DNA of 64,000 bases from Antedon mediterranea (GCF_964355755.1 NC_092677.1:5788101-5852100), one strand, 5' to 3'. Positions 10,119 through 62,067 are shown, counted from the stretch's first letter. Translations and numbers: made by a program. Notes: generated by a model not told the origin, from the sequence alone.

Positions 10119-13100
10119 ATGGTGTTATTTCAGGCAACACTCATTTTTGTTATACATTCTGTAGTCGGTAAGTTTAAAATAAATGATTATTGCAGTTTTA
10201 AATAAAATATTAATTGATAATGTATAGGCCTAATTAATAATATTTCTAACGTGTGAAGTGAAACAAAAGGAAGCATAGATACTGCAAAAAATGAGGTGCA
10301 GTATAATCACTTCATACATGTATATATAATTTGTTTTAAATATAATTTTCAAATCAAATAACTGAGATCTAATCTACAAGATTTAAAAGATGTTCTACAT
10401 AAACAAAAACTTAAACAAATCTTTAGGAGATAAGTTTTTTTGGCATGAGGAAAAATCCTTACATCTGAAACGATTTGTACCAAAGTAGCTACGTATCTTA
10501 TTCACTACTACCGCAAAACGAAATACATCATTATTGAACACCCATACTTAGCTATTGTTTAAATGATTTAATTATCGTAGTATAGGGCACTCATCCTCAA
10601 ACTTAACAGACGAATTGTGCATCACTGGTACTATCCCTTGATTTGAAAATTCTATTTGTATTTTGATTTTTTAGCTGATACATCTACCAAAACATTTTCG
10701 ATAATCGAAGGTGAAACTATCACAATGTCAGCACCAGAAGAGGTTCATCAGCTCAAGATCAACAACGAGATAATGAATATAAATTGGTTTGACGCTAAAT
10801 CACCCAATTCAAAGCATCTTATACTTAACCTGAGCGATTCCAAAGATGGCCGATTTTCAATCGATGATACTACTGCAACATATGGAAATTTAATCATAAA
10901 AAATGTAAAGAGAGAAGATGAGGGACACTACACATGTCAGGTGGTAAAAAATGATGGAATGACTGACTGGAGAGAGACATACCACATGCTTGTATACTGT
11001 GAGTCAATTTTCTCAGAAGGATTTTTTTTTTATTTTGAACATAGGTTAATTTTAATAGATTTAATATCTGTTTACTAGGTCGATAACGAACGACGATACT
11101 ATACATTTTCCAACAGAAAATAACTTTGGTGAAAATAATATATTATTTCAAGTCAAGAACAAAGGAAACCGACATACTTTGAATGCATCTTTAAATTATT
11201 TACATTCTCATTATAGAAAGGCTATGAACTATACCTACAACAAATAAACATAAATAACAAATAGTTGTGACCAATTTTGATTGAAAAGATATAAAAGAAA
11301 AAATATCTGCCTTTTGTTGAACGCGTATCCATATTTTGTGTGTGTTAACGTTGACTATTATTATATTGGTGTAACACACCTATATACCATATTTAATATA
11401 ATTAAACATAATTATACCGTATTGCTTTAAAGTTATATTAAAAACATTTGATTGAATATGCCATTAATGTCACATAATAGTTATTCACTTTCACCAAAAA
11501 TTTGATCAAAAGCCTGAATTTAACCAGTTATTTTGCTTATTTATTTTTTAAAGTGAAAACATGTCTTCATTATAATGTTTATGAAAACTGCAAAATAGCC
11601 TATCCAAAGTTTTTTAGTCGCGTGGACGCGACTCAATAGTTCACTATGTCGGTCGGTTGGTCTGTCGGTCTGTTGGTCTGTCTGTCGGTCCGGTATCACT
11701 ATGCGTTTTAGCACGCGACTTATGGCTGTTGGCCTTGTTTTTTTATCAATCTTCATTTGTTATGTTTTTGGAGACAATACATCTTTAATGATATAAAAAC
11801 AATCACATTTTCTTGATTTAGATATAGATCGTCCTACTATTTCTGGGCCATTTACATTGGTCTCTGACAACACTAATTCTGTTACCTTTTTCTGTACGTG
11901 GGGTAACATACATCCAAATGAGGAACCCAAAGTCTCGTGGTTGTTTGAAGAAAGTGTGCTTAACACAACAGGAGGAAGATACGCTTTAAAAGATGACAAA
12001 AACAGGCAATCAATTGTTGTAATGAATATTAGTTTAAGCGATTTTGGAAGGTATGCATGTCATATCAATGTTGAAACTAACATGGCTAATATGAGTAAGA
12101 CAAGCAATTATGAAGACCTCACACAGATGCCTAGTAAGTATATTAACCAACGATCTTACTAACACATTATAAAACAAGCCTATCTTTAGGAAACCCTGCT
12201 ATGTCCGTCTATAGGCCTACAAAAACGTACAAGGTGCACGTTCGTAACAATTGAGTAGGTTTACATTTCAAAGATTTTTTTGTATTTTGATGAAGTGTCC
12301 GTGCCCAACGAATTATATACAGCAAAATAGCATGAATTATTTATGTTTATTTTGTGACGTTTCATGAGGGGTCCCCAACTTATGTACGAAAAAAAAAATC
12401 GCTGCCCGGAACTCCCTACTGTACAAATACATCATCTATTTAAACCAACTCACAGGTGGAAAATATGCAAATATGTCATTGCGTACAAAAAGAGTAAATG
12501 ACGTCACAACATTATCATAAGGAAGTGGTATGTGTTTTGGAGTAAGTTGTGCTTCATCACCACCTTAGTAAAAACAGTATACAATGGAAAATACCGCTTT
12601 CAATTACCCACTTGGCTAAAGCCAGACCCTTATTTCCATTAAAGTAATTTATTAGTTATTTTTCTATAATTAATAGATTGCGAGCCACTGCTTATTACAG
12701 GATATCCCTTTACAAATGTAGAAGAAGGGGAAGAAGAAGTAAAGATACAGTGTGATGTAAAATTTCGTAAACATATTAAAGTAATAATTTGGAACGAATT
12801 AGACGACGCAGGTGATGATGTAAACATAGCAGTAGTGAACTCGATGAGGCGAGTTAACGGCCGCTACAAACTAACTGAAGAATCAGGAAAATCAAACTTA
12901 GTCATAAAGTCTCCGAATGGAAGGGATTCTGGAAAGATGTTCACGTGTATTGTTGTGTTTGTTGATGGAACTACGGCCGCCATGGAATCTCCCTCTAGGT
13001 TAAATGTATGGTGTAAGTATAAAAACGAAAATATATATTAAACAAGTGTTGCTAGTTGTACAAAGTACCAATTCTATTACGTCCGACCACCCTATCAAAT

Positions 13101-16100
13101 CCTATCCCTATACATTATACAAAATAATATATATTTAAAGTTGCAACTGCATTTTGATTGATTTTTTATCTAGTGACTTTATCTTGTACCTTTTTAGATA
13201 ACTTTTGTTTTCAGTCTAAAGAATCAAAGAATATTATTGTACATGTTCAAATTTATTTGTAAAAACTAACATTTCTAATAATAATCCAGGGACTTTCTAA
13301 ATGTTTTATTTTGGATGAAACCTGAAGGTACTTATCTGAAAACTATTGTATATATTATTGTAAACATAGCGATGAAGATTGTTATGTTTAACTACTTTCA
13401 TTGTTACATTTAAAACATTATGAAACTGTAGTATACTCATTTATTAGTGTACTTAAACAGAAATGAAACGCACAAGAATAAACAATAACAATAGACATAC
13501 TTCTTTTTCCTTTTATGGTTAAAGTTTTCTCCCTGCTTCTAACAAATTCAGATTGTTATATTTTAACAACTTTCATTTTTATTCTTAAAACAATAAGAAA
13601 CCGTAATAAATTATTACGAAACTCATTTATTAGTGAAGTTTATTAATATCAAGAAAACCGAAACCCCTTAATGACAAACATCATACGATAGAACTACTTC
13701 TTTTGTTTAGATAATTGTCTTCCTGTTTAATGCGTGGATTTATATTGTAACTATACATACATTACAACATGATCGGATGTAATGTAGAAAATATATATTA
13801 ATGGTTGTAAAGTGAAAACACTAACTCCGGAACCAATTCAATTCTAGGCCTTAAACCTTAGGTGCAATTGTTGAAATTTATGTATAATGCATATCAAGAG
13901 TGTGCAACGTTCCCAGCTATTAGACCTATGATGAAAAAAACCCTAGTTTATTTTCTTTTTTAAAATGTATATTTTTCAGATCTACATACGCCACAAATAA
14001 TGATATCTAAATCTAATGTCTATATTGGAGAACCAATCTCCATGATCTGCAACGTTAGTAGCAATTGGTACGCACAAGTACATATCACGTGGTTCAAAGA
14101 CAACGCCATCTTCACAAACGATAATAACAACTATTCGTATAGACTACAAATTCCAGCCGCATCTTTACTTGATAATGGAATTTACCAATGTCGAATCCGA
14201 AGTGACGACTTAGAAAAAATAAGTACTGGTATTTACGTATCAGTTACAGATGTTTGTGAGTATTATACCTCAATGATTGAAGACATTAGTTAGGTCACCT
14301 GACTTTGATACAGAAAGACCCGGATTTAATTTCCGAGGGATGACAAAGTGGCATGAAAAAGAACTTAGTACAGTGAGCTCATAAATAATAGCCCATCCCA
14401 TACGTTCGGAATGGCACGAGACTCTCCTTTACCTTTTGTAATTGAAGGTAATAAGACAAATAATTATTAAAAAGATATTATTGATTGATTTATCAATATC
14501 AATATATTATTGATTTATTAATTCGTCATAAAACATTTACATAAGATAATGGAAAAAAGAAGGTCCAAAAAACATTTAAAAACATGAGAAAAGAAAACAA
14601 TTATATAAAAGTAATATTACTTGGCCAAAAAGAATGATTAATAAATAAAAATTTAAAAATTTGCTTTATTAAAAAATTATTAAAATTATGGATACTACTT
14701 TACAGACTTTCCAACTTGAAACAATTTACCATTGGAAGGTTTTTTTTATGTATGTACAACTATGAGGGCGCAATCAAATTTTTAAAATTACATTAAGCCA
14801 TAAAAGTCCGCGCTTCACAAATAGGAAAATATTTACATCTTTAATATTAAGTAGTCAGGCGTGTCTAAGGGGAAAATGCGTACCAACTCAACATTAATTC
14901 ATTTATTAAATTAAAATTTATTACATTTCTTACGTTTCAGTTATCGATGCTAAACTGTTATACGAATCTGACACTGGTGTTGTAACATGCATTGCGGATG
15001 GACATCCCCCGCCCTCGCTAGTCAGAATATATTATAATGGAGAAAAAGTTGCAGAAGGTGACTCCTCGACCATTTACACAATGGACACATCGGTTTGTGG
15101 AGAAGCTATTATGTGTTATACAAAGAATGCTAGAATGAACAACACTACACAACTACAAACAGATGAGCACTGTAAAGGTATGGATAGTTATCACAAACAT
15201 GATTACGTAACACCAAAGACTAAAATTTATAATAGAAAATCGTATCTATGGGCTCATACCCCATTTACCTAACCAAAATGTGTTTACAGGAGAAAGAGCA
15301 CATGACAAGCCGAATGTCAAGTATGGCAACAAAAATCGCTGCCCATTCGGATAAGTTCAGATTAGCTGTGGTTTTAATTGGTCATGACGACGATGACAAT
15401 AAAATACAAATTATATGTGAGAGTTCTTTTATTTAGCTGTAGGCGCGGGCCCAAATAAAATTAGAATATACTTCTATAGACTTTCTAAAGTACATCAATC
15501 ACTAGATTACTAATTTATAGGATGAAATCACTGGCGTTGGTGTTTTTTTCTTTACGGTAGCGATATTTAAGACGACTGGTTTATCAGTCTAGTCTATCAA
15601 CCATGCGCAGTAACCTGGTGTATTAATGTATGCTTACACGACGCTCTATCGACAGGGGGCGCAATAACAGTACTAGCAAAAATCATTCCTACTTCATTTT
15701 GCAGTATATAAGTTTCGCATGACTCGCCAACATATTAACCTTGCGCAGTTTAAAATGAAAGTAATGTTGAGGGCGATGTTACCGACACGATTTTCTGTTA
15801 AAATGATTTTCTAATGTAAACCAATTGTTTGATATTGTTATTTTGGAGTTTAAATTTTTATTTTTTCAGAGGATTTTTATTCACCTTCAACATTATCAAG
15901 CACAGTTCTAATTATAATAGCTGCAATGTCTGCTTTCATCTTTGGCGCCGTTCCGACATGTGTTATTACTCGTTTTATTTATGTAAGTTTTTTTAAACTT
16001 CCAAAGATTTTTAGTCAGTAAATAAAAAAAACAAACAAACAAAAACAAGATAAAAAAGAACAACCTAAGAAATTGAAACTATTATATTAAAATAAAATGT

Positions 16101-16745
16101 ACACAATTTGTTCATCTATCAACTAAAAGTACCGTAGGCCTATATCTATATATTACGTTAATATACATTACTAATAAACAAAGTTAGTAACAATTAATAA
16201 TTAACAGAATGTATTTCAGTTTGTTGAATTTAGGACATTATGATTTTATATTGAATTATATATATATTTTAAATTAATAAATACGGTAAACTAGTAATGT
16301 GATCCTAACAATGATGGTATACGTTTTTCAGAATTTAACGCCTAGGCCTACTTATTAAAATTATTCTTTTGAATTGATGAGCCTACCCAAACTATAGGTT
16401 AACATCAACGAACAACTTGTAATACTAGTATTGTTTCTTTAGTAAATTGTCTGTGATCTGATTGAAGACAGGTCTACACAACAGTATCTTAGATGTAAAA
16501 CACCAACAAATAAATTGAAATCATTATTTTTTATTTAGATAAAACGAATAAGAACAATTCATTGTGAGTATCGAAATCCTCGCTACCAAGAACTAAAAGT
16601 GTCTGCGCTTCCTGCCATTTACAAAGAGCTCAACAAAGTTACTAAAGTAGATAACGGTGCTAGGCCCACGACGACGACAAGAAAGGAACAAGTCAACACG
16701 GATTCGAATGTGGCCAAAAGCATTTATGAAAATATTTCAGAATAA
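10119..16745 (+). CDS. Gene 1: apparently intact IgSF type-I receptor with 5 Ig-like domains, TM, and ITAM plus ITIM tail
   Basis: Exons: SP 10119-10167 (MVLFQATLIFVIHSVV), V 10675-10998, C 11822-12133, V-like 12677-13012, C2 13980-14255, short Ig 14941-15177, TM 15870-15982, tail 16539-16745 (...YQELKVSALPAIYKEL...SIYENISE*). All are GT-AG, phase-compatible and stop-free. A probable non-coding exon donor lies near 9249. Confidence 0.85.
11613..11740 (-). repeat. Helentron/DINE-1-like short interspersed repeat (other copies ~31470-31568, 39335-39425, 40478-40548, 45090-45205, 56338-56445, 60516-61285)
   Basis: Shared layout: ACAAGGCCA..AGTCGCGTG, (GACC/GACA)n microsatellite, ATAGTGA.CTATAGAGTCGCG...CGCGACTAA terminal hairpin. 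The family assignment is inferred from this layout. Confidence 0.65.
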
Positions 16746-19084: not shown

Positions 19085-21178
19085 ATGTCAACATTTGTAT
19101 TTCTGTACCTACTGTTTCTGATTGAACACGCCATCGGTAAGTTTTTTTCAGGTGTACAACAGAGAGAATCCTGCTCGGCATAGCCTCTTGCATATCTAAT
19201 ATATATTATTACATTATCTAATCTAAAACTAAACAACTAATGGTTGTTTGTTGAAGATGCGTTAATAAACAAACTCTTGCTCTAACATCACGTAATAGCT
19301 CAATAAATATACATTCTGATCAGAACGTCATAATTTCTTATTGTTATTTAAGATTTATAACATTAATTTAACCGTGTTATAATTGGGGTAATTGTATTTA
19401 TAAAGAATACTAATGCATTATATACAAATTATAAGAAATTGTATTTCTGTTATTGGCTGACCAGTTTCGAAAATGATATTTTCTCGACATTGGTATATGA
19501 CAAGAGTGTTTAACTCAGTAAATAAAGAGGAGGAGGGGAGGAGAATAGAGGGAAGGGAAGAGTGGGAGAGGGGAGAGAGAGAGAGAGAGAGGGTGGAGAT
19601 GATAAGGACATGGAGAGCGTGCATGAATTCGTTGAAAACCTGAACTTGTGCAAAAACATGATATCTGTACTCATTAATTGTTTCCAAATTAGCATTCTAA
19701 ATTGCTAATGTGGTGTTTTGTATCCAAGATTATTCTATTTATATTTTAGCATCAGATGTTATAATATCTGTAATTGAAGGTGAATCAATTACAATTCCTG
19801 CTGGAGGTGGTATTCGCAAGGACGAAATACATTCGATAAGTTGGTTTAAAGGTAAAAACATTCGTCATCAAGTTATCGTTAATTCTGTTAATCGTCAATC
19901 TGGCAGATTTTCGATTGTTAATGCCTATGGAGATTTGATGATACAAAATGTAAGCAGAGAGGATGCAGGATACTACACTGTTCAAGTTGTTAAAAGTGGC
20001 GAGGAAAATCAAGAGACCATGACATATCCCCTGGATGTATATTGTAAGTTTTAAAATATGTTTAATATTAGTATATCTTTAATTTAGATATTCTAAAATT
20101 AGATAAGTATACGTTTTTTGAATATTTACACTCAAATCAAATTTCAATTAAATGAAAACTTTCACAGGAGGATTAGAAAATATATAAGTTAAATTAATGT
20201 TTTAGTTATTTGCAGAATACTATTCACAAGGTTATTACAATGACATTTCTTCTTATTCTTATAAGAACATTCTTTGTTCAGTTTTTAAAATACCCATATT
20301 TTGTAACATACATTTATATTCAATTTGAGTTAGCAAAGATACCGTATGAATTCACAGTTAATGCATGCCAATGTCATCACAAAAGACATAAAGAGTGGCA
20401 CCCCATAACGTAGGTCGGCTAAACTAGTTGTGCCCTAGACCGTACTAGCCGTTTGTTCCGTGTACAATAACGCAGTACACCCTTTGGAAAAGAGAAGGGG
20501 ATCGTCTCTCGGTGTACTGCCCAATATACCAACAGCAGGACCTCTACAGACTTAGTGGGCTATACTTGGTGTATAACACTAAAAAAACAACACAAAAGAT
20601 AAAACAAGTAGGCTTATTACTATATGTCCTTCTTTTCTATCGCAGATATGGATTTTCCAACTCTTACATCGAACACTAAAAATAATAACGATAGCAAGTA
20701 TATTATATTTCACTGTCAATGGAGTGAAATATATCCCAAAATGAAACCGAACGTTACGTGGATACAAAATGGAAATTTACTTGACCCCAACACAATTAAA
20801 TACAAAGGAAGTAATACTATAATAAATAGGGTTGTTTATCAAGTGTCTGAAAACGACTATGGAAACTATGCTTGTCGTGTCACTGTTGAAACAATGGCAG
20901 GAAATATGAACTAGAAGAGCAGTGTCGAAGAAATTACGCAAAGTAAGTACAGTATTTACAATCAGGCATTCTTACATAGAAACCGTGTTTTTTATTATTA
21001 TTGTCAATAGGAATTTGAAAGGTTTTATCTACACTAACTCTTTTTAAATAGTAAACATTGATTTTTTTCAGTTGCTCTGGATTTAACCTCACCAACGGGC
21101 ATATTGACTACAGTTTTAATATTAGCTGTTATCGCTTCGTTCGCCATTGGTTATTTTGTAGTAGCAGGTTTTCTTTAT
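19085..21178 (+). pseudogene. Gene 2: SP-V-C-TM unit with an in-frame stop in the C exon and no tail exon of its own
   Basis: SP 19085-19136 (MSTFVFLYLLFLIEHAI), V 19750-20043, C 20646-20942 with TAG at 20912-20914 where the paralog has AAG, TM 21072-21178. It is followed directly by the gene 3 SP exon. Confidence 0.8.
20385..20580 (+). repeat. Degenerate SINE-like fragment in the V-C intron (paralogous copy ~22930-23140)
   Basis: Two diverged copies of a GC-richer segment containing GCACATTAAAGAACGCAGTACACTCTTTGAA, reminiscent of conserved SINE central domains. The family is not certain. Confidence 0.4.
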
Positions 21179-21387
21179 GTAAGTATAAAGATAAATTATG
21201 TGAATTGATTAGAACGGCCAGAATATATTTGCTCCCCACCCATAGAATTCGCCCCTGGATATGTGACGCGATTAATTATTGTAACAAGTATTCCCAGTCA
21301 ATAGTTGATCATAGCATTGAGAATGACAAGCAGTATTTAAAATGTTATCAAAATAAAGGAAATGTTTTCTTTTCTACTACATAGATT

Positions 21388-24300: not shown

Positions 24301-25059
24301 GGTGGCCCGGGCCGGGAGGCTGGGTAGGCAGCTCCACACCCCACCCCTTGAACCCCTCCTGGATAAGTGACGCGATGAATTATTGTAACACAATACATTT
24401 ACTTTAAAGCACAATGCAGATTATTACAATAAGATCTAAAGAGGCAACATATAACATCAGTAGAACATTTCATATTGGGATTGAGCGAGTTGCTTCTAAA
24501 AAACACGTTTCCTCATCACTGCGATCACACGTGAGAATATGAGTACCAAGACTTCTCAAATAATTCATCGATTGCAAACTCTTTACAACAAACTGACGTA
24601 CTAGTTGCTGGAGTATAGAAACTGTTAGAGTTATAAAAGCAAATCAAGATCCTTAGCGATAAATTAATATGATATAATATGCCAACTGTTTGTACTAAGA
24701 AACTTGATTTGGCCGATTTTTGTTGTGAACTTTACAATATTTAGTTAAAAGTAATAAGGTTGCAATGCAAATTGTTATTGAAATTACAACCTAAAAATAC
24801 GATTTGATTAGTTAACAATCCAATGTTAAAATCAGTTGTTATCGCTTCAATCGATCTTAGACTAAGTTGCTAATTATGATTGTGAAACAATGGTATTAAA
24901 TAAAATCGACAGCAATAAGAAACTTACTTTCACTCAAATGATACATTATTGTTTTTACAGAAAAGACGATTAGGTCTGAAAGAAAACAAGTCTAAAGATA
25001 ATGACCTCCAATATCAAGACATGCAATATGCGTCACCCCTTCTCATTACCAGGAGCTAA
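21388..25059 (+). CDS. Gene 3: SP-V-C-(chimeric stalk)-TM-tail receptor with a GC donor after TM and a frameshifted tail
   Basis: SP 21388-21439, V 22244-22531, C 23216-23512, chimeric exon 23621-23737, TM 23867-23982 (donor GCAAGT), tail 24961-25059 KRRLGLKENKSKDNDLQYQDMQYASPLLITRS*. Confidence 0.72.
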
Positions 25060-44980: not shown

Positions 44981-45539
44981 TTTATTTAAAACTAGTTATA
45001 CGCATGCTCGGTCCTTTTCGATTCTATTAGCCTAAATACATTACATTTGCAAAAATACGTATAAATTCTACTCAGCGTACGCCAAAAGTAACAAGGCCAA
45101 CAGCCATAAGTCGCGTGATAGTGATACCGGACCGACAGACAGACCGACAGACCGACCGACCGACATAATAAACTATAGAGTCGCCGCGCGTCCACGCGAC
45201 TAAAAATGCTAGCGGGAACCATAACCATTATATAACCAGGACCTACTAAACAACGTCGATGTCGCCGTACGTTTGGCTATGTAGGCCTACAACTGTTCGA
45301 GATTAAGTTCTTTATGGGTACAGCATTCATAGATATAGAACCTCACTTTATAGTCTATCTCGTAAATATACCGTAAAATCTAATAATAAACTTTATTTAT
45401 CATGATAGTCGAGATCCATGATTATGAAGTAAATCCTTCAGATAACGTTAGCATACAATATGAAATACTCAGTAGTTCTGAACAGCCGGTTCAAGCACTC
45501 ATACGAGACAAGCCTAGCTAGGATATAATAAGAACAAGT

Positions 45540-50100: not shown

Positions 50101-50941
50101 GGACATTATCGATGTGACAATGACTATTACGACGGCGACTTTTATCGACGGTTCACCAAGTTGGTAACATCAGAAGTCGCAAAAATGTTAACATTAATAA
50201 CAAGTGAACCATAACTCCTATTTATAGATATGGCAACATATTACCTGTTCTTGATATTTCTTTGTCAACCGACGATAGGTAAGATTAATTGAGAAAAGTT
50301 TATTATTATGTTTGAATCAGTTATTATTATTAGTCAAGGGAAAAATGGCAAATAGCTTCCTACTTTCCAGGAGTTTTATGTTAGTTAAGTTATCAGAGAG
50401 TCTATGTTGTTTTTGAAAACTCTGTAACATGACCACAGTCCTGATTTTGCTTAGAGTTATCGTTTTTAAGATCAAATTGATATGCTTTATTTGTAGTCTC
50501 AGGTGTAACACAATTGTCGATAATCGAAGGCGAAACTACACAAACCAACAGTGGTGTTGGTAGTCTATGAGTGCCGCTTACCTGGATAAACCAACATAAG
50601 CCTCTCTCTCCGACGAGAGGTAAACATTACGAAAAGAAGAACATTAATAACATTAATTTTTCCCCACCCCCGTCGGATAATGGATCAGTCCGCCACCAGT
50701 ACGCCCTCAAGTGAGACACACCCACTTATCATCGTCATCATTTCTCAAGACCACCTGCCTGAGGGGACGGTAGGGAGGGCGTTTATCCAGGTAAGCGGCA
50801 CTCATAGACTACCAACACCACTGTTGGTTTGTGTAGTCTATATCGTGCCTAGCTTACCTGGATAAACCAACATAAGCCAGTGTAGCACCGGACTAGAGTC
50901 TAGTCGGAGGCGGGAGGTAAGGTAAACATTGTCATACATAC

Positions 50942-53809
50942 CTAGTGTCTGGGCTTCAAGATTGAAGCCGCCACCGTAGACTGGTTTGCGGAGGTATCCG
51001 ACAGGTAGTGGGATGTGAAAGTGGACTGTGATCGCCACCATGCCGCTTGCAGGATGTCTGGAAGGGGCACCCCAGCAAACAGCGCCCATGAAGCGGCTAT
51101 GCCACGCACTTGGTGCATATGTGCCGGAGGAGGCGTATTTGTGGAGTCGTAACCAGCCCGGATGGCTGCCACGACCCAGTTTGCCAGCGTCGACCGAGCA
51201 GCCGGTCGGAAGGGTGCAACTGTCGATACGAACAGATGTGACGCTGAGACCCGAATGGACTCTGTGCGTTTGATGTAAAACTTTAGTGCCCGCACCGGGC
51301 ACCAAAGTCTGTCTTCCTCAACCCCTGAACATGCAGCAATGGTGGGAATAAACACAGTCGGCGGCGAGAAGTTCAATGTCTGAGATTTTGCAAGGAAATA
51401 TTTTCTAAAAACCAACCGCGCGCCACCCCGTTCAAACCTGATGTGCCCTGGCTCCAGAGAAAGAGCATGCAGTTCACCTCTGCGCTTGCACGAGGCTAGT
51501 GCAATCAAAAAGGCAGTTTTGAGAGTCAGGTTGTAAAGTGATGCCCTACTCAGGGGCTCGAAGGGTGGACGCATAAGAGCGGCTAGGACGACATTGACGT
51601 CCCAACGTGGAATCAGGGCCTTAGTAGGAGGCCGTTCTCGAAACATCCCGCGAAGCAAACTGGAAATTGCAGGGGATGAAGAGATGGTCGAGCCGTCCTT
51701 AAAATTCGGAATTACTGCACCCAAGGCAGACCGATAGCCGGATACGGTGCGAACCTGCAGACCTGACTCAAACAGGTAATGTAGGAAAGCGCAGACCTGG
51801 CCCAAAGTCACTTTCATAGGGTCGGTCTTCTGGCGCTTGCACCATTTGAAAAAGTGTTTTAATCGGCTATTGTAGACAGCAAGAGTGGATTCCCGTCGGG
51901 ATTTCGCCGCGAGGGCGGCCGGGCCATCTGGAATGCCTGAGTCTCTGAAGCGATTCCTGACAATGGCCATACAGTCAGGTCGAGGGATATGAGGTTCGGT
52001 AGAGCAAACCGAGCTCGGCCCTGCGTCAGCAAGTCGTTCCGAATCGGAAGACGTAACGGCTGATCGTACAGAAGGCCTAGTAGCAGTGGAAACCACGGCT
52101 GCCTGGGCCAATACGGCGCTATTAGTAGGACTCGGCATTGATGGCGCTGAATGTGCGTCAGGACCAGTGGCAGTATTGAAAACGGTGGAAAGGCATATGC
52201 CCAAAGGTTGTCCCATGGTATGGACAGGGCATCCACCGCCCACGCATGTGCATCCCGATATCGACTGCAGAACGTCGGGAGCTGCGTGTTGCCTGACGTC
52301 GCAAACAGATCTACATGGGGCCGCCCAAAGTGGTTGAAGATCTGGGTGGCGATTATTGGAAGAAGACGCCATTCCGTAGGACGTAGAAGTGGACGGGACA
52401 GTGCGACCGCCACTATGTTCAGACGACCCGCAATGTGGGCCGCTGACAGTTGGATGTTGTGTCTTATACACCACATTAGCAACGTCCACGTGTGGCAACA
52501 TAGCGTGGGGGACCGTGTACCCCCTTGCCTGTTTATGTATGCCACGACGGTTGTGTTGTCGGAATTGACGAGAACATGGCGATTTGCCAGATGGGGAAGA
52601 AGAGCCTCCAATGAGCGCTCGACTGCCCAAAGTTCGAGCAGGTTGATGTGGGCGCGCGTCTCCTCGGGCGACCAGAGGCCGGAGACGCGAATGTCCGGAG
52701 ACGGAATGTGACCGCCCCAGCCTACTTTGGATGCGTCCGTTTCCACACGGACATCCGGGATTGACCTTTGTATAGGTGTGCCCACAAGTAACCTGTCTTC
52801 CACGAGCCACCATTCGAGATGCGAGATAATGAACGCATTCGTTGGAACCACTTTGTGTAGAGAGTCTGATCTTGGGCGGTATGCTGCCAGAAGGTGCAGA
52901 TGTAGAGGCCGCATCCTTAACCGGCAGAACGGAACGAGGGCGACGAAGCTGGCCAGTGACCCCAAGGTGCGTAGCCAGTCGTATGCCGTCGGAGCCTGAG
53001 CATTGATAAGATGTAGCACTGCAGTTCTTGCCTTGGCCACACGCTCGATGGATGGGCACGCACGGCCCGTAACCAAATTTATTTGGGCTCCGAGATACAG
53101 AGGGTTCTGAGAAGGGAGAAGACATGACTTCTCCTCGTTTATTATGAACCCTGCTTGTTCCGTCACGAGGCGGACAAAAGATAAGCTGCTCAGCAGCTGG
53201 TCCCTGGACTGGGCCACGATCAACCAATCGTCTAAGTACATGAACACTCTGATGCCGTGTTGATGAAAGAACGCCGCCAGGGTTCTCACTAGACGAGTAA
53301 ACACTCGTGGGGCCGTTGAGAGGCCGAACGGCAGAGCTACGAATTGGTATACCTGATCGTGAATGCGGAAGCGCAGCCAACTCTGGTGTTCTTGCGCAAT
53401 AGGCACGTGAAAGTACGCGTCTTTCAAGTCTATTGTCGCTGCCCAGTCCCCTCGTCTTAGCCCCAACAGGATAGATGAGACAGTCTCCATCCTGAACCTG
53501 CGGGGCCGAATGTACCGCTTGTTCAGACTTTTGAGGTTTAGGATGGGTCGCCAATCGCCCGATTTTTTCTGGGCGAGGAAAACGGTGGATTCGTGTCCCG
53601 GGATCGTAAGTTGTTCTTTTTGAACATGCACCACAGCTCCTTTCTGGAGCAGTGCTTCGAGGCCCGTCATGAGCGCATGACTCTTTTCCGGCTCTGACGG
53701 AATCCTCGTGTGCCGGGCACCTCCGCTCACCGGAGGGCTCGAGAATTCGATACAATACCCGTGTGTCACGGTGGAGAGAACCCATCTGTCTGTGGTCAGG
53801 GTCTCCCAA
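50942..53809 (-). CDS. DIRS tyrosine recombinase ORF (YR in the C-terminal ~340 aa; the N-terminal part overlaps pol in another frame)
   Basis: SRRESTLAVYNSRLKHFFKWC (core-binding region), LKTAFLIALASCKRRGELHAL (catalytic R), CPVRAL, HQVRG (HxxR), AAWWRSQSTFTSHY (catalytic Y). Confidence 0.9.
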   Translation of the reverse strand: MGDPDHRQMGSLHRDTRVLYRILEPSGERRCPAHEDSVRAGKESCAHDGPRSTAPERSCGACSKRTTYDPGTRIHRFPRPEKIGRLATHPKPQKSEQAVHSAPQVQDGDCLIYPVGAKTRGLGSDNRLERRVLSRAYCARTPELAALPHSRSGIPIRSSAVRPLNGPTSVYSSSENPGGVLSSTRHQSVHVLRRLVDRGPVQGPAAEQLIFCPPRDGTSRVHNKRGEVMSSPFSEPSVSRSPNKFGYGPCVPIHRACGQGKNCSATSYQCSGSDGIRLATHLGVTGQLRRPRSVLPVKDAASTSAPSGSIPPKIRLSTQSGSNECVHYLASRMVARGRQVTCGHTYTKVNPGCPCGNGRIQSRLGRSHSVSGHSRLRPLVARGDARPHQPARTLGSRALIGGSSSPSGKSPCSRQFRQHNRRGIHKQARGYTVPHAMLPHVDVANVVYKTQHPTVSGPHCGSSEHSGGRTVPSTSTSYGMASSSNNRHPDLQPLWAAPCRSVCDVRQHAAPDVLQSISGCTCVGGGCPVHTMGQPLGICLSTVFNTATGPDAHSAPSMPSPTNSAVLAQAAVVSTATRPSVRSAVTSSDSERLADAGPSSVCSTEPHIPRPDCMAIVRNRFRDSGIPDGPAALAAKSRRESTLAVYNSRLKHFFKWCKRQKTDPMKVTLGQVCAFLHYLFESGLQVRTVSGYRSALGAVIPNFKDGSTISSSPAISSLLRGMFRERPPTKALIPRWDVNVVLAALMRPPFEPLSRASLYNLTLKTAFLIALASCKRRGELHALSLEPGHIRFERGGARLVFRKYFLAKSQTLNFSPPTVFIPTIAACSGVEEDRLWCPVRALKFYIKRTESIRVSASHLFVSTVAPFRPAARSTLANWVVAAIRAGYDSTNTPPPAHMHQVRGIAASWALFAGVPLPDILQAAWWRSQSTFTSHYLSDTSANQSTVAASILKPRH

Positions 53810-53877
53810 ACCCGTGAAAACCGTTTCAAGCGACCCCCCACCTGCCCGCCCTCGCTTGGAGGGACGGGCGCCCCCAA
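51859..53877 (-). CDS. DIRS pol: reverse transcriptase, RNase H and adenine-methyltransferase-like domain
   Basis: VGGRL, WRPILNLK, IDLKDAYFHVP, LPFGLSTAP, YLDD, TDAS..GWG, HINLLEL, SDN, then DLFAT...YAFPPF...PYWPRQPWF. Confidence 0.95.
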   Translation of the reverse strand: MGAPVPPSEGGQVGGRLKRFSRVWETLTTDRWVLSTVTHGYCIEFSSPPVSGGARHTRIPSEPEKSHALMTGLEALLQKGAVVHVQKEQLTIPGHESTVFLAQKKSGDWRPILNLKSLNKRYIRPRRFRMETVSSILLGLRRGDWAATIDLKDAYFHVPIAQEHQSWLRFRIHDQVYQFVALPFGLSTAPRVFTRLVRTLAAFFHQHGIRVFMYLDDWLIVAQSRDQLLSSLSFVRLVTEQAGFIINEEKSCLLPSQNPLYLGAQINLVTGRACPSIERVAKARTAVLHLINAQAPTAYDWLRTLGSLASFVALVPFCRLRMRPLHLHLLAAYRPRSDSLHKVVPTNAFIISHLEWWLVEDRLLVGTPIQRSIPDVRVETDASKVGWGGHIPSPDIRVSGLWSPEETRAHINLLELWAVERSLEALLPHLANRHVLVNSDNTTVVAYINRQGGTRSPTLCCHTWTLLMWCIRHNIQLSAAHIAGRLNIVAVALSRPLLRPTEWRLLPIIATQIFNHFGRPHVDLFATSGNTQLPTFCSRYRDAHAWAVDALSIPWDNLWAYAFPPFSILPLVLTHIQRHQCRVLLIAPYWPRQPWFPLLLGLLYDQPLRLPIRNDLLTQGRARFALPNLISLDLTVWPLSGIASETQAFQMARPPSRRNPDGNPLLLSTIAD

Positions 53878-53881
53878 GCCG

Positions 53882-55411
53882 TCACCGGCGCTTCACATTA
53901 TAATACCGGCGACCACTCCTGTTGGTGGCGCCTCTGCCACCCCTATTTCGCATTCCGCGAGGGGGGTGTGAAGCCTGTCTTGATGTAGAAGCCTGACTTT
54001 GCATAGGCTGAGCCGGTGGCGGCGGGGGAGGCTGCATCTGCTGAGGAGCAGCAGGGACAGGCGGCGGTCGTGCGGCTGTCCTTGAGCGTGAATTGCTAGC
54101 TCGGCGCTTTTGCGGGAAGCGCGCTCTTGTCTCCCGACGAGCTTCCCTCTCACGAGCCCATTTATCCTCCTTTTGTGAGAAGGAGCCAAAGAACAAGTCC
54201 TGCGCCCCGAAGGAGTCAGACGTAGTAAACCTACGGAAATCGGTCGGTGCGATGTCAGTTGCACCCAAGACGTTAACGCGACGGGCCGCGGCCGCAGATA
54301 ATGCGATCGTTGCCTGTTGATCAACAACCAGGCCCATGATCTGCTGTAGTAGAGCTATCACGTCCGAATCGCCCTGGGGCGGATGTTCTGGATCAGCCAG
54401 AAAAGATAGCAAGTACCCGGCCATAGAGGCGGCTCTAAGCGTCTCGCGTGCGGCCCTGTCGACGGACATAAGGACGTCCTCTGTCCGGGATTCCGAAGGC
54501 TTCAAAAAATTAGTCCTGGACGGGTCCAGGTTCTGGTCCTCACGGACCCGTTCCTTCGCTGCCTCCGGGACGCTCGGCGCCGCGATGTACAGTTCGAATT
54601 GTTTCTGCGGCACCGGAAAAGCCGATGACAGGCTATAAGGCATAGGCCTACGAACCTTGGACTCCTTAGCGATCAGCTCCACACGTTCCACAAGTTCTGG
54701 ATCGAGAGGCGTAACCGGGCACGAAGATACCTTCTTAAAGGGCGTGCGTACGCCAAAAGTGGAATACCGCTTAGACGAAGGAGTATGCTTAGGCTCTCGA
54801 TACGTGAAATCGACGCCGAGAAAGGACAGCACCGCGGGGACCGTCCGCATAACTAGCGCCTGCAGACCTTCCTCCCCTGGCCCGGCCTGCTCTCGTAAGC
54901 TATCTCTATCATCGTCAGAGAGCGAGGCCATCGTCCTGTCACTATCGTAGACCCTTTGCCGGACGGACGAACCATCGAAAAACGAGGTCTGCTGTGGGCC
55001 AACATCAATGTATGGAATCTGGGGAGGAGGTCTACTCTGAGAGGGTACCTCAGGCTCATCCCTCGGCAGAGCTCTCACAGCTGCAACAATGGCTTGCAGT
55101 AACCCCGGAGAAATCTCATTCACCCCCGGAACCGCAGAGGCCGCAGCCGGTGCAGGCATATCTGGAAGGCTAACTTCCGGCGCGACGACAGGAGGGCCTG
55201 CCGTATCAACGGTACCCACCTCCGGAGGTGGTACCGCTTCCGTGCGCTCTTTAGGCTTAGGGAGCGATTTGAACTTGGACGGTGTCCAGCGGACACAAAC
55301 ATCGCACGGCGACAACTCGGTACACGTGCGGCAATTTATACACTCCAAGTGGCGGTCCCACTTCACGGTAGAGCGGGGACCCCTACATTTAATACAGTCC
55401 TGCTTAGGCAT
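53882..55411 (-). CDS. DIRS gag-like ORF1
   Basis: 509 aa, first ORF of the element. N-terminal Cys/His cluster (CxxC...HxxCxxC..C.....CxxC), RRVNVL and LFFG motifs, basic Pro/Arg-rich C-terminus. Confidence 0.85.
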   Translation of the reverse strand: MPKQDCIKCRGPRSTVKWDRHLECINCRTCTELSPCDVCVRWTPSKFKSLPKPKERTEAVPPPEVGTVDTAGPPVVAPEVSLPDMPAPAAASAVPGVNEISPGLLQAIVAAVRALPRDEPEVPSQSRPPPQIPYIDVGPQQTSFFDGSSVRQRVYDSDRTMASLSDDDRDSLREQAGPGEEGLQALVMRTVPAVLSFLGVDFTYREPKHTPSSKRYSTFGVRTPFKKVSSCPVTPLDPELVERVELIAKESKVRRPMPYSLSSAFPVPQKQFELYIAAPSVPEAAKERVREDQNLDPSRTNFLKPSESRTEDVLMSVDRAARETLRAASMAGYLLSFLADPEHPPQGDSDVIALLQQIMGLVVDQQATIALSAAAARRVNVLGATDIAPTDFRRFTTSDSFGAQDLFFGSFSQKEDKWAREREARRETRARFPQKRRASNSRSRTAARPPPVPAAPQQMQPPPPPPAQPMQSQASTSRQASHPPRGMRNRGGRGATNRSGRRYYNVKRR

Positions 55412-58400
55412 GGTGATCTAACAGACCTACTTTTCCCCACTAGCCTAACGAACAACAAAAGATCTTCCAGTATTTCTATCCAGGTGAAACACACTGGATA
55501 ACGGCTTACAACGCTAAATTTTAACTCCTGGCAACTAGCCAAGGGTAACGATTCTAAACGTATCCACCACAAGATAACGATCTACTACACTTAGCTTCGT
55601 TTTCTTGCTCTATTCTTCTCTTCCTGTCTACAGTATAAAGGTCTTTATCGCAAATTCCTCAGGAATTCCAGGAATGTGTTCAGAAAAAGACGTACGTACA
55701 CAACGACGTTACGAAAAGAAATGATGACGATGATAAGTGGGTGTGTCTCACTTGAGGGCGTACTGGTGGCGGACTGATCCATTATCCGACGGGGGTGGGG
55801 AAAAATTAATGTTATAATGTTCTTCTTTTCGTAATGTTTACCTCTCGTCGGAGAGAGAGGCTTATGTTGGTTTATCCAGGTAAGCTAGGCACGATATAGA
55901 CAATCTCAGTTAACGTTTGCATGTCCGTTGAGAGAGAAGATGCGGTAAATTGGTTTGAAGATAGAGGAATAAATCCAAGCAAACTGATCGTTAATTCTGC
56001 CAATCGTCAATCGGGAATTTTCTCAATGAATGGAACTTCAGGCAATTTGGTCATAAAACAAGTAAACAGAATGGACGCTGGTCTCTACACATGTCAGGTT
56101 GTTGAAAACGGAGGCGAAAGGGATTGTACTGAAACGTATAATTTAAATGTATATTGTGAGTTGTTACTTTGTATAATGTAATATTGATGATACCTAATTG
56201 TAATCCTAATTGATATCCAATTGTAGTATGTATAATATAGCTATTTTTTATTTGTGTTTTAGAGTGACTTACTAAACCAAAATCTTTAGCAAAAGTAAAC
56301 ACATTTTGTAAACCTAAATTTATTTACATATTTAAAAACAAGGCCATATTCATGGATGCAGTCGCGTGCTCAAGTTAGTGTTTACCGACCAACCGACCAA
56401 CCGAGCAACCGACATAGTGAGCTATAGAGTCGCGTTGCACGCAAGAAAACAAATAAAGTCGTATGTCCTTCTTTTAAAAAAAACATACCAAGACGATACT
56501 TAAAGCTTACATTTTTTTTATAGATAATTTTCATATAAGCCCATTTACACTAGGGTGATAACGATCGACGATAAAAATAGATAAATATGCATTTTTAATA
56601 TATAAATCAAAAGAAATTTTTAAAAGTTGTTATCCTAGAACTATAGGATAACCACATGCTGCCTTTGATGATAATGATATTTTCACACGTTCAATCAAAT
56701 GGCGTCATGATTAGTTAGAGCAATAATATCGTGACAATACAACGATTTTATTGTTTTTATTGATCATGACATCATTTGATTGGATTTAAAAAAATAGTAT
56801 CTTTATCGAAGACAGAATAAATTATTACCCTATAGTTCTATTACTTCTATTTATTGTCATTTGCATATAAGATATACATAGAAATTGTGTTTGCTCTGAG
56901 ATATACCAAAAAAAACAGATAAATAAAAACCAAGTGTTATAAAAAGTGTTACATCACTCTCGTAGCATGCGTTCAGTGCCCGAATGGCAGCTGGATAAAA
57001 GCTACTTTACGAAACATATTAGTATTTCTAAAATTAACAATTATATTTTGGGCAAATTTAGCAATTGTGAAACTGAAAATTAGTATTTAAAAAACCTAAT
57101 TATTATTACTAATCGTCTATTGCATAGAGTAAGATATGCAAAGTAATTATACCGAAACAATTGTTGCTTCAAAGAGCTATTCATTTGAAAATGTTTCATA
57201 CCAATGTTTCATTTGTTAATTCTTAAATATGTTTTTAGGTTGATGCTGTGTTTGCATATTAATTACTGAGTACCGTATTTCTTGCATAACAACATTACAA
57301 CATTGTGTATTTTCCATATTAAATTATTAATAATTATTACTAAATAACAAATTAAGCTAAGTAATAACAATGTGTATGCCAAGATGTTTTTAAAAACAGT
57401 AATGATTACAATATAAATTATGGATATTTTATTACAGATATGGAGTCTCCAAATATCAAAGAATATACTACGAATATTGGAAACAATGTTGTTGGTTATA
57501 CACTGTGTTGTCAATGGTCAAAGATGTTTCCTAAAATGGAACCAAATGTCACGTGGTTTCAAAATGGCAATACATTAGAAGCTAGTACGACGTACGTTTT
57601 AGAAACACAAGGAAATGTGCATACAATGTGTATTAGTTACATATCAGAGGTTGGAGACTATTCTTGTCGCATTGATGTTGAAACAAGTATGGGTAATATG
57701 AGCAAGACAAGCAATTGCAAAGAACTGCAGTCACCTTGTAAGTAACAGAAAATTATTTTATATCATGTACCTTCCAAGGTTATATTATAAATTACATTTA
57801 TACTTAATGACATCAACAATAAAAAACTTTATGAAAAATATCGTACTTTAGAATGATCAAAATGAGGTGTTATAAACATACAGACAATACGTGTACTGTA
57901 ATAAATGTTATAATCATAAACCATTGAAGCATCATTCACATTCTTCTTAAATGTGTTTTCAAAGATGTTGATTCACCAATTGTCATCGTATCTATCGATA
58001 ACACAAAACGCTACTATGCATTTTACTGTGTATGGGGTTTATTGTATCCAGAATTTGAACCAGACATAACCTGGATTTTTAATGGAAATATACTGAACAC
58101 ATCAATAACTAAATACAGTGTAACAGACGAAGGGAAACGTTGGAATAAACTTATTATTCTTGATACAATAAGTAAGGACGACTTAGGAAACTATTCTTGT
58201 TGTATTACTGTACAAATGGATGACGGCACTAATATAACAAAGAAAAGCAATGTAGAAGAACTTTGGCAAGCATCTATTAGTGGTAAGTTAGAAATATATA
58301 GAATTTTATTTACACGCTGTTAAGCCTGTTTCGAATTGACAGGATTCAGCGATTTTATTGGAGAAGGGGGTAAACATGCTGTCAATTCAATGCAACTCAG

Positions 58401-60515
58401 CGTAACTCAACGATCGACAGGAAAACAGGCTTAACGCTAAATGTATAGATTACATATAAGGATACAATAATATCACAACAAAAACTTACATATTTTGCAT
58501 AAATGGAAAATACAGACATTGATTGATAAATATACAACTTACAGTAAATTTTTGGGTTTGGATTGTTACCATTGCGACAGATATTACATAATACTACTGT
58601 ACTAGGTGTAGTTCAAAACATTTCTAACGTGACAAAATTACGCCTGCAATTCTTGAACATTTCTATACTATTCAAGGTAGGCCAAAGAGACGAATGTCCG
58701 CTGATTTTAACAGCAGCTTAAATTCTCCGTGATATAACATTTATTTAATAAGGGTTAGCAAAATAGTAATAATCTAATAAAAATAATATTTATAATTCAA
58801 AAAGAAGTATTATTATTATTAATTTGAATAATTATTGTTTCATTTAAGTTACACGGTTATCAGTAGTTGAAGAGGAGCGAATAGCAATACCAGCTGGAGT
58901 TGGTGTGCCCATAAACGAAATTGTGACGATAAAGTGGTACAAGTATAAATCGCCAAACACAAGCTATATAATTGTTAGTTTAACAAATCGAACCAATGGC
59001 CGCTTCTCAATTGATGGAACTGGTGAAAACTACGGTGATTTGATCATACAACATGCTGATAGAGAAGATGCGGGTTATTACACAATTCAGATTTTTGAAA
59101 AAGAGGATTCTAGACAGCAGACCATTACGTATTATTTGGATGTACATTGTTAGTTTTTTTTTCTTTAATAAATATTATAATCATAGTATACAGTAGCGTA
59201 TAACCAAATTTAGGCACTAATTATATTTCCAACTTATATTTAAATATTATGATAGGTTATAATATATGTAGTCTTTAACCTCCACTCATTTTAAACTAGT
59301 ATCACATTATTTTTGCTAAATTGTAGACTTGACCATGAATGCCTTTTATCATTTTGTATTATATTATTTCAGTCGGGAAAATGTATTATTATGTTCTTAA
59401 TGCTATGTTCTTATTCACCTGGTGTGGCTTACTGCAGAACTGGATTCTCAAATTCACGAAGTGTTGTTACATACAGTCTTTCATAATTGAAGACAAAATA
59501 GATAATTTCCTACAATTAAACTTTGAAAAATATTGATCAGCGGTGGTATAATTGTATACACAAATTATTTGACTAAATTTGAATAAATACAATCACGGAA
59601 GTTATAGAAATGTTATGCTAATTTATAGTCTGCTCACTATTTTTTATAACTTTATTTCTTCCAAAGATCTACCTCAACCAACTCTCACATCATTCACTGA
59701 AAAGGCTGGCCACAGAAACACGTTGTACTGCAGGTGGTGTCAAATTTACCCCGAGATGGAACCGTACGTAGCATGGTTACATAATGGACATATATTAAAC
59801 ACCTCAACGACTAAGTACAGTGTGATAAAGAACGAACAGAAGAACAGACAAACACTCATTATTCTGGAAATGACTGAACAAGATGTTGGAGAATATGCTT
59901 GTCGTATTACTAAAAACAAAATTAGAAATGCCTAATATGAGCAAGACAAGCAATATTGAAATCCTAGGTACGAACTGCACAATACATTGTTTATTTTATC
60001 GTCGTCAATTGTTTCACTACAAAATATTTCTAAATTTAGGTATCAATTATAGTTGATTGAAACATATTTAATTCGGGATTAAGTTAGTTTTTTTTAAATA
60101 TAAATTATAAAAATATTGTTATAACAAACATGCTTTCTTTTTAAGGTGCTTTGGATTCAACAGTAGCAGCATGCTTATCAAGTACAATTCTAATTGTCGC
60201 TGTTGTAATCACATTTATCTTTGGATCTGTCCCCACTTGCGTAATAGCAATTTGTCTTCATGTAAGTATTTTTTTAATTACACGGGGCTAAAAGACACAA
60301 GCGAAATAGGTTGTATAGTATTAAAAGAAAAATAAACTCTTATTGTACAAAGAGAATGATTTTCGGACCGAATAATTGGTTTGTTTTGGATTTTGTTTTT
60401 ATCTATGCTGGAAGGTTTCGTCAACATTATCATTAGTACCATTATAAATAACCAATTACATAGAAATTTAAATTATCATTTATAATCTGAGAGTAAATTA
60501 GTAGGTCTAAATAAA

Positions 60516-61285
60516 AACAAGGCCAACAGCCATTAAGTCGCGTGCTACAATGCATAGTGATACCGGACCGACAGACAAACAGACCGACAGACAGACAGAC
60601 CGACAGACAGACGGACCGACCGACATAGTGAACTATACTGACCGAAATTACTGAACATGTTTAAAAATGTTGAAATGTTTAAAAACATTTATATTTTTTT
60701 AATTTACACGTGCGTAGCCTGTCACTTTTGACGTGCTCGTATAACGTAATTTCGAGTTGAAAAGTAAGTCAAGAAAACAGAAATTGGGCAAAAAGAGTGC
60801 GCAATAACATTTAACGCGCAGTGCAAAAAATCTGCGCACTCATGGCAATTTTGTAAACGCTTAAAATTGCCTGAAACGTACTCTTATTTCATCGAAAATA
60901 AATTTGGAAAATTTTAAGCGCGCGTACGCATGCGTTACATGCGCTACGCACGTAATTGTATTGCCATATGATGATTTATGCCCTGAAATTTATGAGTACC
61001 AAATTTTATTTAATTGTGATTCATGGTTGTTAAGATATGATTACAAACGTGATTTCGTTAAATCGTGCGTAGACCGCGTAATTTTTTATTGCGCACCGTG
61101 AAAACATAACCACATCGATTCCTGCCCATAAGGAATATTCTGTGAAAAATTGACTTAGCTAGATTAAACTGATATCAAGATAAGGTCATAAAGCGATAAA
61201 ACGCATAGTGATACCGGACCGACAGACAGACAGACAGACCAACCGATCGACATAGTGAACTATAGAGTCGCTTCCACGCGACTAA
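60516..61285 (+). mobile_element. Long copy of the Helentron/DINE-like repeat in the gene 8 TM-tail intron
   Basis: Starts ACAAGGCCAACAGCCATTAAGTCGCGTG, has two (GACA/GACC)n blocks and a terminal hairpin GAGTCGC...GCGACT. It is absent from the paralogous intron at ~45810. Confidence 0.7.
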
Positions 61286-62067
61286 TAATGGTGTACTTAT
61301 CAACGGTAAAATGATACACTTTTACTTTCACTCTATAATGAATCATTTATATTTTTCTTACAGAAAAGACGAGTAAAAGAAATCCATACTAATCATAAAA
61401 GTCACCAATATCAAGACCTGCAATTTGTTTCCAGTCCCGCTATTTACAATACAACGATATATCCTATAACAGACGACAACGTTGCTACCAATCAATACGC
61501 TGACAAAATGTCGTATACGCCGTGTCCTAAGCCTAACGTTGATTATCAGAATGTGACGAACTAGTCTAACTTGCTTATTACTTTTTATTAGAGAATCGGG
61601 GGTGGGGGAGGGGTGTTTTTTATATAATGTATAATTGTATATATAACTAGAAAATCAAATTCTTTAAATTAATACAGGCTATAATATACACACATTTAAC
61701 AAAAGCTTTTTTTCCTTAAGAAATATCGTTTAAGCATAATACATGCTCAAGGAATAATTGATTGTTTGTTTGAAATAATATAATTATGAAACATGTAATC
61801 AAGAAAACAAATATATAAATTTGATTAACTTTAGCCTTGCTCCAGTTGATACTGTAAAGCTTCATTATCAAACTTTATGTGACAGAAAATGTGATGTGCA
61901 TGCATGGATATTATAATGTCTTATCACTACGATATTTGGGCATGTCACTACCATATTTGGGCTCATCGCATACTTTTTTGACAAACTAGTTTGATAGTGT
62001 AGACAGGGCATAAAACAAACTAACGTGTATTAGAATGTTCGTCAAAACACATGCGTTTTGTATGGTG

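Follow-up and report, generated by a model that had tools for sequence, protein, structure and literature searches.

A tandem array of immunoglobulin receptor genes with ITAM and ITIM tails in the crinoid Antedon mediterranea

Clustered receptors of the immunoglobulin (Ig) superfamily (IgSF) that carry immunoreceptor tyrosine-based activation or inhibition motifs (ITAM, ITIM) in their tails have been described from vertebrates, Hydractinia and Botryllus. Among the vertebrate systems, CD2/SLAM receptors are marked by tails with an immunoreceptor tyrosine-based switch motif (ITSM, TxYxxV/I), FCRL3/5 combine an ITAM-like motif with an ITIM in one tail, and in the adaptor-coupled clusters (KIR/LILR, SIRP, NITR) the activating members have a charged residue in the transmembrane (TM) segment. 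CEACAMs have been presented as vertebrate-restricted, and as not found in amphioxus or Ciona (PMC5112662, PMC4079198), and the ligand domains of Xenopus CEACAM pairs are reported to be 80-93% identical (PMC5112662). Outside vertebrates, Hydractinia Alr is described as a cluster of IgSF genes that shuffle exons, include pseudogenes and encode tails with an ITAM or ITIM (bioRxiv 10.1101/2022.03.04.482883), Botryllus FcoR as an IgSF family of an invertebrate deuterostome that shows intergenic recombination and has ITIM/hemITAM tails (PMC12582321), and oyster CgIgIT2 as a single five-Ig receptor that has an ITAM and binds microbes (PMC11999971). Here we analysed 64,000 nucleotides from Antedon mediterranea (GCF_964355755.1 NC_092677.1:5788101-5852100), referred to below as the window, and found a tandem array of eight units (G1 to G8), all on the + strand, that runs from 10119 (ATG) to 61564 (stop). 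The array is probably a crinoid IgSF receptor family under birth-and-death turnover, and would likely serve as an innate-immune repertoire that signals through its tail motifs.

The eight paralogous units of the same orientation over ~51 kb, which a preliminary description of this DNA had proposed, were recovered when we rebuilt the genes by in-phase exon translation. The number of Ig exons per unit (5, 2, 2 plus a stalk, 1, 4, 0, 2 and 5 from G1 to G8) agreed exactly with the earlier count. The units are composed of a signal peptide (SP), variable-type (V) and constant-type (C) Ig domains, a TM segment and a tail, as follows (aa, amino acids).

10119..16745, + strand: G1, SP-V-C-V'-C'-C'-TM-tail, open, 617 aa
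10119-10167, 10675-10998, 11822-12133, 12677-13012, 13980-14255, 14941-15177, 15870-15982, 16539-16745, + strand: exons of G1
16584-16631, + strand: ITAM of the G1 tail, YQEL-x8-YKEL
16719-16736, + strand: terminal ITIM of the G1 tail, SIYENI
19085..21178, + strand: G2, SP-V-C-TM, with a premature stop in the C exon (20912-20914) and without a tail exon of its own
21388..25059, + strand: G3, SP-V-C-stalk-TM-tail, open, 322 aa, its TM exon followed by a GC donor (23982)
28275..30239, + strand: G4, SP-V-tail, with the C and TM exons lost
33072..36716, + strand: G5, SP-V-C-V-C-TM-tail, open, 541 aa
36558-36605, + strand: ITAM of the G5 tail, YQDL-x8-YQEL
36690-36707, + strand: terminal ITIM of the G5 tail, VVYEDI
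38368..39050, + strand: G6, a relic with only an SP exon and a tail exon, mutually out of frame
41311..44980, + strand: G7, SP-V-C-TM-tail, open, 343 aa, with an ITIM only (LVYDEI, 44954-44971)
45588..46489, + strand: an extra relic, absent from the preliminary description, with a G8-type intron, a tail-exon start (45889) and a 3' region, the tail body being replaced
50230..61564, + strand: G8, a pseudogene, SP-V-C-C-V-C-TM-tail, interrupted in its first V exon by a DIRS element
50537..55901, - strand: DIRS1-like tyrosine-recombinase retrotransposon within the first V exon of G8, apparently intact

Three units (G1, G5 and G7) are intact and have complete tails. The frame of G3 is open, its tail being shortened, and the other four (G2, G4, G6, G8) are broken or truncated. 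The preliminary description had noted many recent lesions; those seen here are the C-exon stop of G2, a 2-nt deletion in the tail of G3, the loss of the C and TM exons from G4 and of all Ig and TM exons from G6, and the DIRS insertion plus a frameshift in G8. G2 is a pseudogene or a secreted V-C form. The stalk exon of G3 (23621-23737) is a chimera of a TM start and a C end that originated by a small tandem duplication, and the deletion (near 25039, relative to G4) removed the second half of the ITAM, so that YQDM remains. In G4 the splice from V to tail leads to a stop at codon 117, although the tail exon's own frame keeps YQDM-x8-YQEL; if expressed, the predicted product would be a single secreted V domain. 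The TM and tail of G7 form a separate class with a phase-1 intron. The frameshift of G8 lies late in its last C exon (59667-59967), and its tail reads YQDL-x8-YNTT plus VDYQNV. The tail of the G6 relic (38829-39010, + strand) contains a 39-nt (13-aa) tandem repeat between its tyrosine motifs, and its frame stays open.

All 21 Ig exons matched a Pfam Ig family, 19 of them with E<0.004; the weakest matches were the second V of G1 (E=0.074) and its last C (E=0.008). Of 35 modelled introns, 34 are GT-AG and one, which starts at the donor after the G3 TM exon, is GC-AG. Since one Ig domain corresponds to one phase-1 exon across the array, exon shuffling is possible. A six-frame scan with hidden Markov models of the family V, C and tail detected no family exon in the window beyond the modelled ones. 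The paralog blocks are 75-85% identical, introns included, and DNA reads (three runs from one sample) covered 30/30 bins of 19001-39000. We therefore rejected an uncollapsed-haplotype artefact of the assembly and regard the units as real paralogs.

The V domains of the family have 0-1 Cys in 8/9 cases; the exception, the first V of G8, has three and may form a disulfide bridge. The core Trp and the Asp of a CEACAM-type salt bridge are invariant in 9/9 V domains, and the Arg/Lys partner is present in 7/9. The C domains hold two invariant Cys in 9/9, a feature generic to the IgSF, and their best matches were titin and NCAM2. The signature CxWxxI(Y/H)PxMEPxVxW, thought earlier to be shared by the C domains, proved too narrow, as a strict match occurred in only 2/9; the relaxed form CxWxxx[YHFN]PxxxPx[VI]x[WL] fits 9/9 family C domains and not the last two C of G1. 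When the V profile was compared with PDB sequences, the best matches were to CEACAM1 (4e-12). The V model (predicted local distance difference test, pLDDT, 91) retrieved CD84, CEACAM1 (CEACAM1b), CD48, CEACAM15 and CEACAM6 at the top Foldseek ranks, and in a wide fold search CEACAM7 (Z 12.3) was the match of lowest root-mean-square deviation (rmsd; 1.7 A for 90 residues) and of highest identity (28%), tied with Tim-2, CD48, NTB-A, NKp44 and OPCML. Structural alignments of V with CEACAMs showed 21-28% identity, with Z tied with many V domains. The AlphaFold model of G7 consists of two Ig domains, a TM helix and a short low-confidence stalk; in searches with its two domains, CEACAM1, CD166 and Lutheran came out level, each at a Z of about 14 and an rmsd of 6-7 A. 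A complex prediction for a homodimer of the G7 V domain scored 0.02. No family stood out alone in the fold searches. The sequence search and the Foldseek search, of the kind that the preliminary description had called for, placed V nearest to the N-domains of CEACAM and CD2/SLAM, with generic V folds tied in the wide search. In build the proteins resemble a CEACAM or SLAM receptor, a likeness short of membership.

Tail motifs were defined as Yxx[I/L]x6-9Yxx[L/I] for ITAM and [I/L/V/S]xYxx[I/V/L] for ITIM, as given in bioRxiv 10.1101/2022.03.04.482883. Eight tails were counted, seven from the window and that of the RefSeq protein P0007, a ninth paralog that is encoded outside the window and probably belongs to the same array. 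A strict ITAM was present in 2/8 tails (G1 and G5), or in 3/8 with Met allowed, which adds G4. In 6/8 tails an ITIM lies among the final 10 residues. Shuffling gave p values of 0.010 (G1) and 0.003 (G5) for the ITAM and of 0.003-0.015 for the motifs per tail; the tails are homologous and non-independent. G1 and G5, the intact ITAM receptors, each carry a terminal ITIM too, and the ITAM and ITIM share one tail encoded by a single exon. The ITAM and ITIM tails of the preliminary description are thus present behind TM segments, but its wording of paired receptors does not suit ITAM receptors that have an ITIM as well. A charged residue was detected in 0/6 TM segments, and an ITSM in 0/8 tails inspected by eye.

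We searched for relatives with profiles. The C-domain profile (5,792 candidates) retrieved 25 proteins, of which the top seven were RefSeq proteins of Antedon mediterranea and the remaining 18 generic multi-Ig proteins. The Antedon members are named CEACAM6-like, CEACAM7-like, NCAM2-like, fasciclin-2-like or uncharacterized, and six of them map to window genes. P0003 ('CEACAM7-like') and P0004 are identical to our models of G3 and G7, and P0006 ('CEACAM6-like') stops where the C-exon stop of G2 falls. P0005 ('NCAM2-like') is the C-terminal 506 of the 617 aa of G1, with the N-terminal 111 residues missing, P0002 shares 455 aa with G5 and is without its signal peptide and tail, and P0001 renders the G8 pseudogene as an open protein. 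Because the RefSeq models of G1, G5 and G8 are flawed, motif scans of databases would undercount the family.

The V plus C profile (7,575 candidates) retrieved five proteins, four Antedon members and P0170 of Anneissia japonica (E 2e-55). The V of P0170 is like that of the family, with 33-41% identity to the eight V domains of the window used in the comparison. Its C domain shows the motif of the family, its TM is G1-like, its ITAM YQAL-x8-YNEL again has a spacer of 8 residues (shuffle p 0.004) and its terminal motif is YENV; G1 is its closest unit in TM and tail. Such conservation of the motif in Anneissia is a stronger test than the shuffle p values. The search was word-limited and passed over three known members, so that its copy number for Anneissia and its range beyond crinoids are lower bounds. 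With P0170, the family is not confined to one species; it was crinoid-only in the searches made: no family-level homolog outside crinoids was found in the word-limited searches with the C profile, the G1 protein or V plus C. When 1.84 billion representatives were searched with a profile, 2,647 matched, the 150 listed being mostly long multi-Ig proteins plus six Antedon members; P0170 was absent among the matches listed, and this search says little about range. One-to-one orthology to NCAM, fasciclin-2 or lachesin was unsupported, since a search of 5,165 candidates with the G1 protein retrieved no protein but G1's own and the 18 other C-profile matches were generic. Rank 11 of the Atlas search with P0004 was an unnamed cluster of 93 members, mostly Echinodermata and about 338 aa long (feature score 0.93), from which receptors of this sort might be traced in further echinoderm classes.

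The gene models, for which a check by transcripts had been proposed, were supported in part. In run X1, which comes from a second study, whose RNA nature is a guess and of which only the spliced contig was used, one contig joins 22243-22531 directly to 23216-23502, exactly the predicted V-C splice of G3. Other X1 contigs start exactly at the acceptors of the G3 tail (24961) and of the second C of G5 (C2, 35495). The joint of TM to tail was unseen, and the reads seen included none for G1, G7 or G8.

The trees were built with 10 V and 10 C domains, the three divergent domains of G1 being left out, and revealed the exchange of whole segments between units. P0007 combines SP and V of the G8 type with TM and tail of the G7 type, its V pairing with the first V of G8 (support 98/97, 81% identity). 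G8 holds the C-V-C block of G5, as the second V domains of both (95/94), the second C of G5 with the third C of G8 (100/99) and a third grouping (94/94) showed, and has a G1-type TM. V-domain identities within the family range from 32 to 81%. Pairwise dN/dS (NG86; only pairs above 68% nucleotide identity are reported) for the five closest V and five closest C pairs of paralogs was 0.54-0.96 and 0.42-0.96, respectively, which is high for a structural adhesion gene. Relaxed or mixed selection fits these ratios; positive selection is not proven, no ratio being above 1. Between X1 and the window, 2/289 letters of the G3 V exon differ (both change the residue), as do 4/287 of the C exon and 16/317 of G5 C2, where nearby non-coding sequence differs at 18/382 and 15/372. 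In these thin data from a single other study we saw no sign of polymorphism at the level of Alr. One X1 contig of G3 has two G2-type bases at 23464-23465, a faint hint of gene conversion.

The array resembles CEACAMs in its tandem clustering, variable number of C domains, ITAM and ITIM tails and secreted or truncated forms, as well as in an N-terminal V held by a basic-acidic pair instead of a disulfide, for which CEACAM was the best sequence match in PDB. It differs in that structural identity is 21-28%, whereas CEACAM N domains across vertebrate classes share about 35%, in the union of ITAM and ITIM in one single-exon tail, in the distinct CxW...P...PxVxW C domain and in having no matched pair among its intact genes. 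With CD2/SLAM (CD84, CD48, 2B4, NTB-A) it shares the disulfide-less V followed by C, the V-C-V-C doubling and the tandem cluster, and CD84 and CD48 ranked 1 and 3 in Foldseek; however, the array has true ITAMs, none of its tails has an ITSM and identity is 19-25%. Unlike KIR/LILR, SIRP and NITR, its TM segments are uncharged. FCRL3/5 and CgIgIT2 have other classes of Ig domain, and their likeness to the array lies in the tail motifs. The likeness to Hydractinia Alr lies in the clustered invertebrate IgSF genes, exon shuffling, pseudogenes and tail motifs described there; in contrast, the array keeps the core Trp and lacks an Fn3-like domain (Pfam Fn3 match in 0/6 proteins, and exon content that leaves no space for one), and high polymorphism was unseen. 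No Alr sequence was matched in the C-profile, G1-protein or V plus C searches. Compared with Botryllus FcoR, the array has a full two-tyrosine ITAM, and sushi domains and cognate partner genes were unseen.

Several observations weigh against an immune receptor family. Only 4/8 units of the window are open membrane receptors. The dN/dS ratio never exceeded 1, and 9/10 pairs include a broken copy, by which the ratio is inflated. The terminal PIYENV of P0170 is a non-canonical ITIM, and YEN-type motifs also suit Grb2 or Src SH2 sites. The splice that would join the ITAM-bearing tail to the TM in G1 and G5 was unseen in the reads, and the RefSeq model of G5 has no tail. In the wide fold search CEACAM and CD48 were level, at Z 11.7-12.6, with Tim-2, NKp44, OPCML, contactin and the beta4 subunit of the sodium channel, and the Atlas neighbours, in mixed clusters of adhesion and immune IgSF proteins, include the adhesion families HEPACAM2, JAM and fasciclin-3. 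A rival reading is a non-immune family for adhesion or clearance, acting by homophilic V adhesion or by Draper-like ITAM engulfment of dead cells in regeneration or development, whose copies would have arisen by local tandem drift. Such a reading draws on the V-C architecture common to JAM, HEPACAM2 and CD166, on the dN/dS ratios, on the single Anneissia homolog that surfaced in the word-limited search, and on Drosophila, where ITAMs are reported to drive the clearance of damaged cells (bioRxiv 10.1101/2022.03.04.482883). We consider it rather unlikely, as a conserved adhesion gene does not resemble 51 kb that hold four broken units and one relic, ectodomains that have been shuffled and tails of three classes, and as the word-limited searches yielded homologs in crinoids only.

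The wording 'paired' would imply a classical locus in which near-identical ligand domains, matched by gene conversion, sit on separate activating and inhibitory receptors, as in CEACAM1 with its ITIM and CEACAM3 with its ITAM-like motif. The 81% identity of the first V of G8 to the V of P0007, whose tails are of different classes, the 64-76% mutual identity of the V domains of G2, G3 and G4, would-be secreted forms included, and the two G2-type bases in the G3 contig all lean that way. However, G8 is dead in this assembly with a degenerate second ITAM half, so that the sole 81% pair across classes includes a dead gene; the V of the intact ITIM-only G7 is 32-44% identical to those of the ITAM-type genes G1, G3 and G5, vs 80-93% for the Xenopus pairs; G1 and G5 are dual-motif; and 0/6 TM segments are charged. 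In this test, which covered the window and P0007, a paired locus appeared very unlikely, and we dropped the term. The term 'allorecognition' fared no better. A locus for allele-specific homophilic binding like Hydractinia Alr or Botryllus FF/FcoR might be expected from the clustered IgSF genes, exon shuffling, pseudogenes and ITAM/ITIM tails that Alr and FcoR also are reported to show (PMC12582321; bioRxiv 10.1101/2022.03.04.482883). The array is without an Fn3-like domain, the few G3 differences between X1 and the window and the non-coding divergence matching that of G5 C2 amount to no striking allelic divergence in that one other study, and a homolog exists in Anneissia. To our knowledge, feather stars are solitary and do not fuse naturally, and an allorecognition locus seems highly improbable.

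We therefore return to a receptor family of crinoids with a probable innate-immune role. What was observed here is the anatomy of the genes with their lesions and motifs, the shuffling, a single spliced junction and the conservation of motifs in a second crinoid, and a lineage-restricted (crinoid), fast-turnover IgSF family with ITAM/ITIM tails and exon shuffling, as first proposed, is supported. The tail motifs and the analogy with CEACAMs (PMC5112662) suggest the immune role, the ligand, the cell type and the kinase and phosphatase partners. In the mechanism that we propose, the N-terminal disulfide-less V would bind a ligand that is likely to be either a cell-surface protein or an adhesin of a microbe, and receptor clustering would allow a Src-family kinase to phosphorylate the tail. 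The ITAM (YxxL-x8-YxxL) would then recruit a Syk-family tandem-SH2 kinase, with uptake or activation as the outcome, and the C-terminal (I/V/L/S)xYxx(I/V) an SHP-type phosphatase that acts as the brake. In this scheme G1 and G5 would function as dual-motif receptors, G7 and P0007 as inhibitory ones and G3 as a half-ITAM form, and the products of G2 and G4, if made, would be soluble decoys. A transcriptome of sea star eggs is reported to include Syk (PMC11593052).

Other features of the window lie within and around the array. The inverted terminal repeats of the DIRS1-like element, at 50571-50745 and 55717-55892, have 98% identity. Near 50770-50880 the element has its internal complementary region, which contains both element ends, and it carries open reading frames (ORFs) of 511, 677 (reverse transcriptase, RNase H) and 979 aa (tyrosine recombinase). 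No target-site duplication was found at the insertion, and the element as it stands suggests that the insertion is recent. A V-type Ig exon of the two-Cys class at 906-1217 (- strand), 33% identical to the second V of G1, is part of a divergent neighbouring gene that extends past the window edge, and may have a common source with the extra domains of G1. An open 913-aa ORF2 (endonuclease and reverse transcriptase) of a long interspersed nuclear element (LINE) lies at 3570-6311 (- strand). At 63178-63765 (- strand) a 195-aa frame without a Pfam match resembles the C-terminal part of LINE ORF2, and P0001 apparently ends in this region instead of the real tail exon of G8. A high-copy repeat occurs twice, with 81% identity between the copies, at 25959-26918 and 48123-49001, where the depth of the DNA runs is hundreds of times background.

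Neither this family nor any echinoderm cluster of ITAM/ITIM Ig genes was described in the literature searched, which did not take in the 2006 immune surveys of the sea urchin genome, where a mention may exist. The crinoid family is real and apparently undescribed, as the preliminary description had proposed, and falls within the known class of clustered ITAM/ITIM Ig receptors, masked until now by the automatic names NCAM2-like, fasciclin-2-like and lachesin-like. It differs in that both motifs stand in one single-exon tail and that a CEACAM/SLAM-like N domain occurs outside vertebrates. True homology to vertebrate CEACAM and CD2/SLAM we hold to be unlikely; if it were true, the architecture would predate the echinoderm-chordate split, disulfide-less V receptors with ITAM/ITIM tails and decoys would have survived in crinoids from before it, and the array would be the first activating/inhibitory immunoreceptor cluster of an echinoderm. 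The family fills the echinoderm gap among the described clusters, with an ITAM kept between two crinoid genera alongside a CEACAM/SLAM-like binding domain, and it makes testable whether echinoderm immune cells are under Syk/SHP checkpoint control and whether CEACAM-type receptors are ancient or repeatedly convergent.

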